From NCBI GenBank assembly GCA_000004695.1, contig CM000152.2, forward strand, positions 4,768,001-4,832,000: DNA of 64,000 bases, in the 5' to 3' direction. Under the pieces are notes generated by a model that did not search any database, was not told the DNA's origin, and was given only the letters and a program-made list of their open reading frames with translations. The position numbers and the translations under genes were made by a program. The DNA comes from Dictyostelium discoideum. Taxonomy: Eukaryota. Positions 54,563 through 55,774 of the stretch are shown here, in pieces. Position 1 is the stretch's first letter. Every line of letters starts with the position of its first letter.

Positions 54563-55053
54563 CCCCTCATTCTTCAAACAACTTCCACTAATCCAACAAT
54601 CATTTCAATAAAAAGTAATAAAGAACCATCTCCATCATCATCAACAACAACATCAATTAAAAAAAAAAATTTTAACAAACGTAGATCCTGGATTATTTTT
54701 ACCATAATTTTAACCATAACTTTAGTTTCAAGCTCACTCTTATGTTTATATCTTCCAGAATATAAAGAAAGATTAGTCCAACGTAGAGGTTATTTGAATA
54801 AATTAGGAATCTATTCTGACTACCCAACAAATGAAAAAATATCACTCGCCCAACACAACCAAATTTCGTTAGCTAAAGAATTATATGGTGGAAACAGTAA
54901 ACAATATTATGATGAAATGTCAAGCTTTAATACTGCCTACAATCATTTAATTGAAATGAGTTTGTATTATTTTTTTTAAACTTTTAAGAAAAAAAAAAAA
55001 AAAAAAATACACACACTAATTTCTTTTCTTTTTTTTTTTTTTTATTTATTCAT

Positions 55054-55100
<47 letters not shown>

Positions 55101-55774
55101 TTTTAGACCACTTAGAGACTGCTGTTTCAAAAATTTTTGGATCTGCAATTGATTTAAGATTTTCTGGAGACGATGTAATTAATTCAATCGAATGTAAAAG
55201 GGCAATCCATAAACTTAAAACAAACAATTATGTTAATGGAGATTTAGACCAACAACAACAACAACACAATTATATAACCAAAATAGATCAACTTTCAGAA
55301 CAATCAAAAGAACAAAACCAATTGATTGAAAACTTTAAATTGGATTTGAAAAATAAAACAAGTGAAATCGAAAAATTGGAAAAAGAAATTAAACAAAAGG
55401 ATAATAAGATTAAAGAAAAAGAAGAAAAAATAGAATTAATTGAATCACGAGTCTTAAATGAAGAAAAAGGAGGTGAAAAGGTATTGGAAGATCAAATAAT
55501 TTCCCTTAGAAATGATAAAAATACTTTATCCACCCAAATATTAAATTTGGAAGGTGATAAGAAATCTTTGGGTGTTCTTGTTATTAAATTGAATTCTGAC
55601 AAGACCGAGATTCAAAATGAAGTCAAAGAATTAAAAAGAAAAGTTCAGGAACTTGAAGATGCTCCAATCGCATTGATTCCAAATCCATTTGTTAAATGGG
55701 TCAAATCTTTCTATGTTGAAAAGAAATCTTGGTTTGTTGAAAATATTTATAAAATTTGGAATTGGTTTAAATAA
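51674..55774 (+). CDS. Kinesin family motor protein with an N-terminal motor domain, long low-complexity tail, a predicted transmembrane segment and a C-terminal coiled coil. Exons: 51674..52007, 52077..52400, 52518..54959 and, less certainly, 55107..55774.
   Basis: Motor motifs: RVVCRVRPL. P-loop GQTASG|GKTFTM spans intron 1 (donor GT at 52008, acceptor ttacag at 52076). Switch I IASTK|MSAASSRSHS spans intron 2 (GTATGT at 52401, acceptor aaaaaag at 52517). Switch II is LVDLAGSE. Also VPYRDSKLTRVLQDSLGG. The tail has polyN/polyQ, then the hydrophobic stretch WIIFTIILTITLVSSSLLCLYL. Exon 4 is joined through a weak GTTTGT donor at 54960 (phase 1) to the strong acceptor (TTTA)n-ttttag at 55106. 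ORF 55322..55774 (coiled coil) is open upstream to that acceptor. Confidence 0.7.

Follow-up and report, generated by a model that had tools for sequence, protein, structure and literature searches.

A Predicted Membrane Span and a Terminal Coiled-Coil Exon at the 3' End of Dictyostelium discoideum kif7

Introduction

The question raised by this locus is where a kinesin gene of Dictyostelium discoideum ends, and what its 3' end encodes. The DNA analyzed (the window) is a stretch of 64,000 nucleotides (nt) from assembly GCA_000004695.1, contig CM000152.2, positions 4,768,001 to 4,832,000 of the forward strand, and all positions given below without a locus name are those of the window. Between 54600 and 55774, the reading frame of the kinesin encodes a hydrophobic segment and then reaches a stop codon, and another open frame follows shortly downstream. 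An initial annotation had proposed that the segment spans a membrane and that the downstream frame is an exon of the same gene. The analysis reported here identified the region, with good confidence, as the 3' end of kif7, the four-exon gene for K7, a developmentally regulated motor of kinesin-1 type with 1255 amino acids. The full explanation, which we hold to be probable, combines this 3' end of kif7 with a 22-residue membrane span, an ordinary phase-1 intron, a tail encoded by exon 4 and a predicted type II signal-anchor orientation.

The locus is an ordinary one, and the splice and transmembrane calls made for it are correct. The gene kif7, its four-exon model and the perinuclear membrane localization of K7 are already on record; the part that appears to be under-described is the membrane span together with the conserved domain beyond it, whose topology is a prediction.

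Results

Evidence That Exon 4 Is Part of the Kinesin Gene

The frame of exon 3 reads ...NKRRSWIIFTIILTITLVSSSLLCLYLPEY... and reaches a TAA stop codon at 54977-54979. The donor, GTTTGT, starts at 54960 and interrupts a codon after its first base (phase 1); the (TTTA)n-TTTTAG acceptor has its last base at 55106. When 54959 is joined to 55107, the result is ...HLIEM-N-HLETAVSKIF..., in a frame that stays open to the TAA at 55772-55774. The stop, the donor and the acceptor had all been placed correctly in the initial annotation, and the join that it suggested is in frame; its description of the donor as non-canonical-looking was not borne out, since the intron is an ordinary GT-AG one and GTTTGT departs from GTAAGT only at +3 to +4. 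Three introns were found in the gene, each of the GT-AG type, with the donors GTTAGT, GTATGT and GTTTGT and with 92-93% A+T versus 63-73% in the exons. The spliced gene (51674-55774) encodes a protein of 1255 amino acids. The donor of exon 1 is G/GTTAGT (the slash marking the exon boundary), and the join of exons 1 and 2 restores GQTASGKTFTM.

The proposal that the downstream exon is coding and heptad-rich was upheld. It holds 222 open codons in DNA of 73% A+T, for which the chance expectation is about 2e-10, and its ratio of nonsynonymous to synonymous substitution rates (dN/dS) was 0.2-0.4 among close assemblies, i.e., it is under purifying selection. AlphaFold2, run on the single sequence, gave an unbroken helix at residues 1080-1218 (block predicted local distance difference test scores, pLDDT, of 74-97), followed by a Pro-rich break and a low-confidence terminal helix at 1227-1254, and a crude heptad score marked residues 1083-1219. 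An in-frame ATG is lacking throughout exon 4, in which 2.6-4.4 would be expected, and no in-frame GTG or TTG occurs before 55322. Without an in-frame ATG the exon is therefore not translatable alone and, as had been anticipated, needs an upstream partner.

Splice models were searched for with up to four GT..AG introns allowed, each 50-259 nt long and with no less than 82% A+T. A single three-intron solution was obtained for each of the loci L003, L004 and L005, which reproduced the annotated proteins of 1250, 1269 and 1251 amino acids, respectively, and used the GTTTGT...TTTTAG intron. The same constrained search gave no solution for L002, L006 and L007, and these loci were solved by direct alignment combined with a motif search. 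The donor was compared in group-4 loci from four assemblies of the D. discoideum complex, Dictyostelium L002, D. cf. discoideum, D. citrinum, D. dimigraforme, D. firmibasis and D. purpureum. In all of them it follows the same codon position (ATG A/GT) in the same phase, including those in which its sequence varies (GTTAGT in D. citrinum and GTAACT in D. purpureum). The orthologous introns measure 66, 72, 73, 76, 83, 104, 108, 112, 118 and 147 nt, which covers all three classes modulo 3, and contain 81-92% A+T. A branch-like motif, CACTAATTT, is kept in intron 3 of all but D. purpureum. The peptides obtained by reading through the donor vary by assembly (SLYYFF-stop, SLYYFFIL-stop and SNYLL-stop, and no stop in D. 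firmibasis). Furthermore, the annotated gene end coincides with the exon 4 stop in every orthologous locus, and the annotated D. firmibasis protein P0132 (1213 amino acids) spans the junction (...AYNGLIEM-N-YFETFVS...).

The lack of a start codon in exon 4, the conserved position and phase of the intron, the gene models that end at the exon 4 stop and the passage of P0132 across the junction support, by comparison of sequences, the assignment of exon 4 to the kinesin.

Two features of intron 3 itself were also observed. A (TTTA)~20 microsatellite at 55025-55103 makes up about half of it, and among the assemblies of the D. discoideum complex the intron measures 104-147 nt; in the AX4 strain, the CACTAATTT motif is accordingly separated from the acceptor by an unusually long distance of about 75 nt. 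In D. firmibasis, the orthologous intron (L007 7967-8038, 72 nt) is in frame and stop-free and the genomic open reading frame (ORF) reads through it, so that its retention would add 24 residues and would not truncate the protein.

A Conserved Membrane-Span-Like Segment

The hydrophobic segment of about 22 residues proved to be real and conserved, although it lies about 940 residues into the spliced protein (residues 944-965) and not after about 830, as initially stated. Its 19-residue Kyte-Doolittle maximum was 2.45, whereas the next-best window elsewhere in the 1255 residues reached 1.17, and a value of 2.45 was attained by 9 of 5000 composition-preserving shuffles. The summed energy of the segment on the Hessa scale was -2.4 kcal/mol. 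The charges of its flanks are +6/0 on the N-terminal side and +4/-2 on the C-terminal side.

A hydrophobic peak of 2.34-2.85 was present at the homologous site in every group-4 orthologue fetched (including those of D. citrinum, D. dimigraforme, D. firmibasis and D. purpureum), and the substitutions inside the segment exchange one hydrophobic residue for another. A Trp at the N-terminal edge and the basic N-terminal flank are kept in all of these orthologues save that of D. purpureum, which has Phe-Tyr at the edge. The low-complexity sequence directly upstream of the segment gave a dN/dS of about 1, i.e., it evolves in a nearly neutral manner.

The possibility of an unrecognized intron that removes the segment, raised in the initial annotation as an alternative, was rejected. 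The 14 in-frame GT..AG candidates are exon-like in composition, with 69-74% A+T versus 92% in the real introns, and the DNA of the segment itself is also exon-like (75.8% A+T). As read from its sequence, the kinesin carries a real, conserved membrane-span-like segment, and the motor and the predicted span lie in one polypeptide, as in self-anchored kinesins.

The Region beyond the Segment

The 290 residues that follow the segment consist of a conserved module of about 120 residues (68 from the juxtamembrane region and about 50 from exon 4), a helix some 137 residues long and a terminal helix rich in aromatic residues. Within the non-motor tail, constraint is strongest on the 68 juxtamembrane codons, with a dN/dS of 0-0.04 among the assemblies of the D. 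discoideum complex and of 0.21-0.36 versus D. firmibasis and D. purpureum. In the C-terminal helix, which is short and amphipathic, 34.5% of the residues are Phe, Trp or Tyr, compared with 6% in the whole protein, and four of the five Trp of the protein are found there. A 21-nt tandem duplication in exon 4 (55703-55743; KSFYVEK / KSWFVEN) makes this helix longer in D. discoideum than in D. purpureum and Acytostelium subglobosum.

Pfam gave nothing significant on the tail, the matches being weak ones of coiled-coil type. When the contiguous tail of exon 3 was searched with HMMER against a library of 1.84 billion proteins, the only real relative was the D. firmibasis orthologue P0132; the second match, P0133, was dismissed as a spurious repeat protein. 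The tail alone and a five-species tail profile found no matches in the protein searches, which is a weak negative since annotated orthologues exist among the contigs, and no tail relatives beyond the dictyostelids were detected in the HMMER and profile searches, again a weak negative. Pfam kinesin matches are present in the orthologous loci L003, L005, L007 and L010, though the protein searches return no close relatives. Hence, as annotated orthologues were not recovered by these searches, the missing matches should not be read as a narrow distribution.

The coordinates of the gene and of the elements described here are collected in Table 1.

Table 1. Features of kif7 in the window, with positions on the whole stretch.
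Feature	Position	Strand	Description
kif7 exon 1	51674..52007	+	Initiation codon and N-terminal section of the motor, ending after one base of the P-loop Gly codon (GQTASG/KT)
Intron 1	52008..52076	+	69 nt, GT-AG, 92.8% A+T
kif7 exon 2	52077..52400	+	Motor domain
Intron 2	52401..52517	+	117 nt, GTATGT...AAAAAG, 92.3% A+T; site of the sole 11-nt length difference from L006
kif7 exon 3	52518..54959	+	Remaining motor (SSRSH, DLAGSE), neck/stalk coil, N/Q/T/D-rich low-complexity tail, membrane-span-like segment and conserved juxtamembrane region
(CAA)n tract	54496..54563	+	(CAA)22, polyGln, just before the basic flank of the segment; sequence and length differ between strains (alignment)
Predicted transmembrane helix	54689..54754	+	Amino acids 944-965, WIIFTIILTITLVSSSLLCLYL; hydropathy, conservation
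Juxtamembrane region	54755..54959	+	Amino acids 966-1033 (PEYKERLVQRRGYLNKLGIYSDYPT...AYNHLIEM), 68 codons; selection analysis
Intron 3	54960..55106	+	147 nt, phase 1, GTTTGT...TTTTAG, 91.8% A+T
kif7 exon 4, terminal	55107..55774	+	Amino acids 1034-1255 and stop codon (55772-55774)
Long helix, coiled-coil-like	55253..55663	+	Approximately amino acids 1083-1219, with the conserved LEGDKKSLGVL motif; heptad score, AlphaFold2
Aromatic, Lys-rich C-terminal helix	55685..55771	+	Amino acids 1227-1255 (PFVKWVKSFYVEKKSWFVENIYKIWNWFK); composition, AlphaFold2

Candidate Relatives outside Group 4

In the A. subglobosum locus L001, the unspliced genomic frame reads ILVYIISIILITTLLVTASMYI and then RLQEHLSKLGL, and a downstream ORF of 181 codons (12988-13533) encodes a coiled coil that ends in PLPIRLIKRLVTWLKSWFGQ. 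A GTAAGG donor that overlaps the stop codon can join the frame of the segment to this ORF in frame (candidate splice 12718 to 13035). The deposited model, P0001, instead has a frame-changing intron that removes the hydrophobic segment and stops at 12740, leaving the coiled-coil ORF unannotated. Since this change of frame destroys the match of RLQEHLSKLGL to the Dictyostelium motif, an annotation error is the more likely origin of the P0001 splice, and L001 12500-13533 is probably the mis-annotated 3' end of the K7 orthologue. The presence of the segment and of the downstream coiled-coil ORF in the right places is suggestive only. In addition, a K7-like motor is connected to a coil in the EukProt model P0002, with no hydrophobic segment between them; this coil shares EQERSLF with the Acytostelium ORF (pairwise E = 2e-6).

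Motor and Stalk

The Pfam Kinesin domain (PF00225) was matched over amino acids 34-349 with E = 4.6e-112, and the spliced protein contains the motor signatures GQTASGKT (P-loop), SSRSHS (switch I) and DLAGSE (switch II). The affinity of the motor to kinesin-1 was judged from match scores in the PDB, where the top solved structures were all kinesin-1 heavy chains (1goj, 331 bits; 4hna, 326 bits) and the best non-kinesin-1 match was KIF3B (271 bits). The neck and stalk comprise about 100 heptad-like residues (358-457 by the crude heptad score), after which comes Asn/Gln/Thr/Asp-rich low-complexity sequence. No conserved kinesin-1 tail domain, of the kind that binds light chains and carries the autoinhibitory IAK motif, was found by Pfam, and the long central coiled coil of a kinesin-1 stalk was not seen. 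Because the heptad stretch is short and followed by low complexity, and because a tail domain is absent from the Pfam results, K7 is kinesin-1-like in its motor only.

Identity of the Gene and Its Neighbors

The identity of the gene was established at the level of both genome and locus. An intronless ORF of the window (36047-37219) is identical to XP_640574.1 of D. discoideum AX4. The gene next 3' of the kinesin encodes the ribosomal protein eL19 (rpl19), and a look-up of eL19 led to the syntenic locus in ten other Dictyostelium assemblies (L002-L011), in which the gene models start and stop at positions homologous to those of the window model. The D. discoideum assembly L006 has a gene call at 4536-8625 whose product measures 1255 residues, and the DNA there is identical to 51674-55774 of the window save for one 11-nt gap, which falls in intron 2. 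From this extent and identity it follows that the annotated gene starts at the ATG of the window model and ends at the exon 4 stop. An exact look-up of the 1255-residue model and of the raw 962-residue ORF in the sequence collection gave no match.

We take the product to be K7, a Dictyostelium kinesin of 1255 residues whose N-terminal motor resembles that of kinesin-1 and which has little coiled coil and a tail rich in N/Q/T; the name K7/Kif7 is based on this description and on reviews. The two appear as the same gene in that they share the organism, the kinesin-1-type N-terminal motor, the Asn/Gln/Thr-rich non-motor region and a product of 1255 residues, as in L006. K7 was reportedly described in these terms by de Hostos and colleagues in 1998, and cells null for it are said to have a cell-sorting defect. 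Kif7 has been classed as a kinesin-1 with a speed of 0.14 um/s; vegetative cells lack it, and it is expressed only once cells have starved for about 8 h (PMC7140473). The protein was reported at a membranous perinuclear structure and was observed again in 2025 at the endoplasmic reticulum (ER)-nuclear envelope (PMC12676778). The reviews consulted on Dictyostelium motors and on the nuclear envelope make no mention of a membrane span in Kif7 or of a long domain after it.

The order of the kinesin gene followed by the eL19 gene on the same strand was observed in all of the group-4 Dictyostelium loci fetched (51674-57826 of the window, and L002-L011). An S26e gene lies near the kinesin gene in both A. 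subglobosum and D. purpureum. Inside the A-rich spacer between kif7 and rpl19, the stretch 56180-56410 (gcgttggcac...cccctctcgcaac...) forms an island relatively richer in G+C, with no match to Rfam or to tRNA models; Rfam and tRNA scans of the window found no RNA genes.

Discussion

A Possible Topology for K7

A single internal span with a more positive N-terminal flank, as observed in K7, is the arrangement of a type II signal-anchor. Lying 290 residues from the C-terminus, the span cannot be a tail anchor and should be a co-translational signal-anchor, and the more basic N-terminal flank predicts a cytosolic motor and a luminal C-terminal domain. In the mechanism proposed, the basic flank and the motor-plus-tail portion of about 940 residues would remain cytosolic, whereas roughly 290 C-terminal residues would be translocated into the lumen of the ER or the perinuclear space. 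Spans of 18-22 residues are typical of ER and nuclear envelope residents. The short span, taken together with the published perinuclear membrane staining, points to a K7 fixed in the ER-nuclear envelope membrane, where it may pull or position this membrane toward the plus ends of microtubules in developing cells. The luminal helix might then provide dimerization, a contact with a luminal partner or a contact with a membrane. Speculatively, at about 0.15 nm per residue the helix on the far side would measure some 20 nm, a length comparable to the luminal width. A more specific version is put forward as a tentative possibility: K7 may be a type II membrane kinesin whose domain of about 290 residues is luminal and contacts a partner such as Sun1, or the opposite membrane, forming a second bridge between microtubules and the nuclear envelope in Dictyostelium, one independent of KASH proteins and with a motor of its own.

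Several points weigh against this explanation. The support for the splice is limited to comparative and annotation evidence, the membrane span was judged from hydropathy, and the orientation was predicted by the positive-inside rule, with a C-terminal flank that is also net positive (+2). Neither a conserved Cys nor a conserved N-glycosylation sequon was found for the supposed luminal part in the group-4 alignment, a BLASTP comparison of the A. subglobosum juxtamembrane region with D. discoideum gave no alignment, and P0002 has a K7-like motor and a coil with no segment between them.

These points bear on the alternatives to different extents. The kinesin could end at the TAA at 54977-54979 as a protein of 1039 residues (...IEMSLYYFF), in which case 55107-55774 would belong to a separate transcript or gene. 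The stop codon is only six codons past the donor, and occasional retention of the intron may yield a short form of 1039 residues; nevertheless, this account of the locus is extremely improbable, given that exon 4 has no in-frame ATG in its 222 codons and that only 147 nt of 92% A+T separate it from exon 3. Furthermore, the position and phase of the donor are conserved in six species or lineages whereas the read-through peptide and the length of the intron are not, all of the annotated orthologous genes extend to the exon 4 stop, and P0132 reads across the junction. We consider it decidedly unlikely that the segment is not membrane-spanning, i.e., that it is spliced out, is buried in a protein interface or is a by-product of low complexity, with K7 attached peripherally through adaptors like conventional kinesin-1. 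Hydropathy as the sole computed measure of the segment, the model P0002 without it, the A. subglobosum annotation that splices the equivalent segment out and the reviews of Dictyostelium motors and the nuclear envelope, in which Kif7 is not called a membrane protein, would all fit such a reading. Nevertheless, the segment is the lone hydrophobic peak in 1255 residues and has the typical length of a span, with a Trp at the cytosolic boundary and basic flanks, and it is kept at the same site in all of the group-4 species while the flanking low-complexity sequence drifts. Its DNA has the composition of an exon with no credible intron to remove it, the A. subglobosum splice is more likely an annotation error, and K7 has been reported on perinuclear membranes (PMC12676778).

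A small but real chance is given to an arrangement in which the segment anchors K7 by hairpin or monotopic insertion and the C-terminal 290 residues stay in the cytosol, the exon 4 helix serving as a coil for dimerization or cargo binding. In its favor, the cytosol is where kinesin tails normally function, and the sequence that follows the segment is rich in Lys and Glu and free of conserved Cys and glycosylation sites. The C-terminal flank is net positive as well, and the aromatic helix at the C-terminus could rest against the cytosolic leaflet. Nevertheless, membrane hairpins generally require some 30 residues or more, including a turn, whereas the stretch in K7 has 18-22 hydrophobic residues and no central Pro or Gly, and its N-terminal flank carries +6 against a net +2 on the C-terminal side. 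The type II signal-anchor is the reading of the segment that we prefer.

In reviews that deal with Dictyostelium motors and with the nuclear envelope, the anchor of Kif9 is presented as nearly unique, and Kif7 figures as a developmental kinesin-1 only. The present analysis points to a second self-anchored kinesin, of a different architecture, in which the most constrained non-motor region lies beyond the predicted span. If the region after the span is luminal, K7 would be a motor wired physically through the ER/nuclear envelope membrane; such a luminal tail would bear on the coupling of microtubules to the nucleus in Dictyostelium, in which we know of no recognizable KASH protein, and may also bear on the cell-sorting defect that K7-null cells are said to have.

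Comparison with Known Systems

Phrase searches of the literature for natural transmembrane kinesins gave only in vitro work on membrane-anchored kinesin-1, and no kinesin with a proposed type II, luminal-tail topology was found described. In overall topology K7 resembles CLIMP-63 (CKAP4), a type II ER protein that binds microtubules through its cytosolic N-terminus, crosses the membrane once and has a long coiled coil in the lumen. This is an analogy only, with no detectable relationship in sequence, and CLIMP-63 binds microtubules passively and has no motor, unlike K7. Membership in two further classes was rejected. Tail-anchored proteins have their span within about 30-50 residues of the C-terminus, whereas that of K7 ends 290 residues before it. 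In KASH proteins, a C-terminal span is followed by a luminal peptide of some 30 residues that terminates in PPPX, whereas in K7 the span is followed by 290 residues, the C-terminus is ...IWNWFK and PPPX is absent. The KASH proteins nesprin-4, UNC-83 and Klarsicht place kinesin-1 on the outer nuclear membrane and are single-pass, with the C-terminus in the perinuclear space (PMC11816917). They bind the motor via light chains, whereas in K7 the motor and the predicted anchor are part of one polypeptide.

The likeness to membrane-anchored kinesins of amoebae, suggested in the initial annotation, was apt, DdKif9 being the published case: a C-terminal hydrophobic span of its own, about 23 residues long, fixes it in the nuclear envelope, and this anchor has been called "a rather unique feature" (PMC11816917). 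A role in linking microtubules to the nucleus, possibly together with Sun1, has been proposed for Kif9 (PMC11816917; PMC4284225). As a kinesin of the same organism with a hydrophobic segment of its own, Kif9 (Tikhonenko et al., 2013) is the nearest functional relative of K7. The motor of Kif9 is internal and belongs to a kinesin-13-like depolymerase, whereas that of K7 is N-terminal (amino acids 34-349) and that of a kinesin-1-like translocator, and K7, unlike Kif9, is expressed in development and not in vegetative cells. Furthermore, the anchor of Kif9 is C-terminal, whereas the predicted span of K7 occupies residues 944-965 of 1255; with 290 residues beyond the span, a large domain would have to sit on the far side of the membrane.

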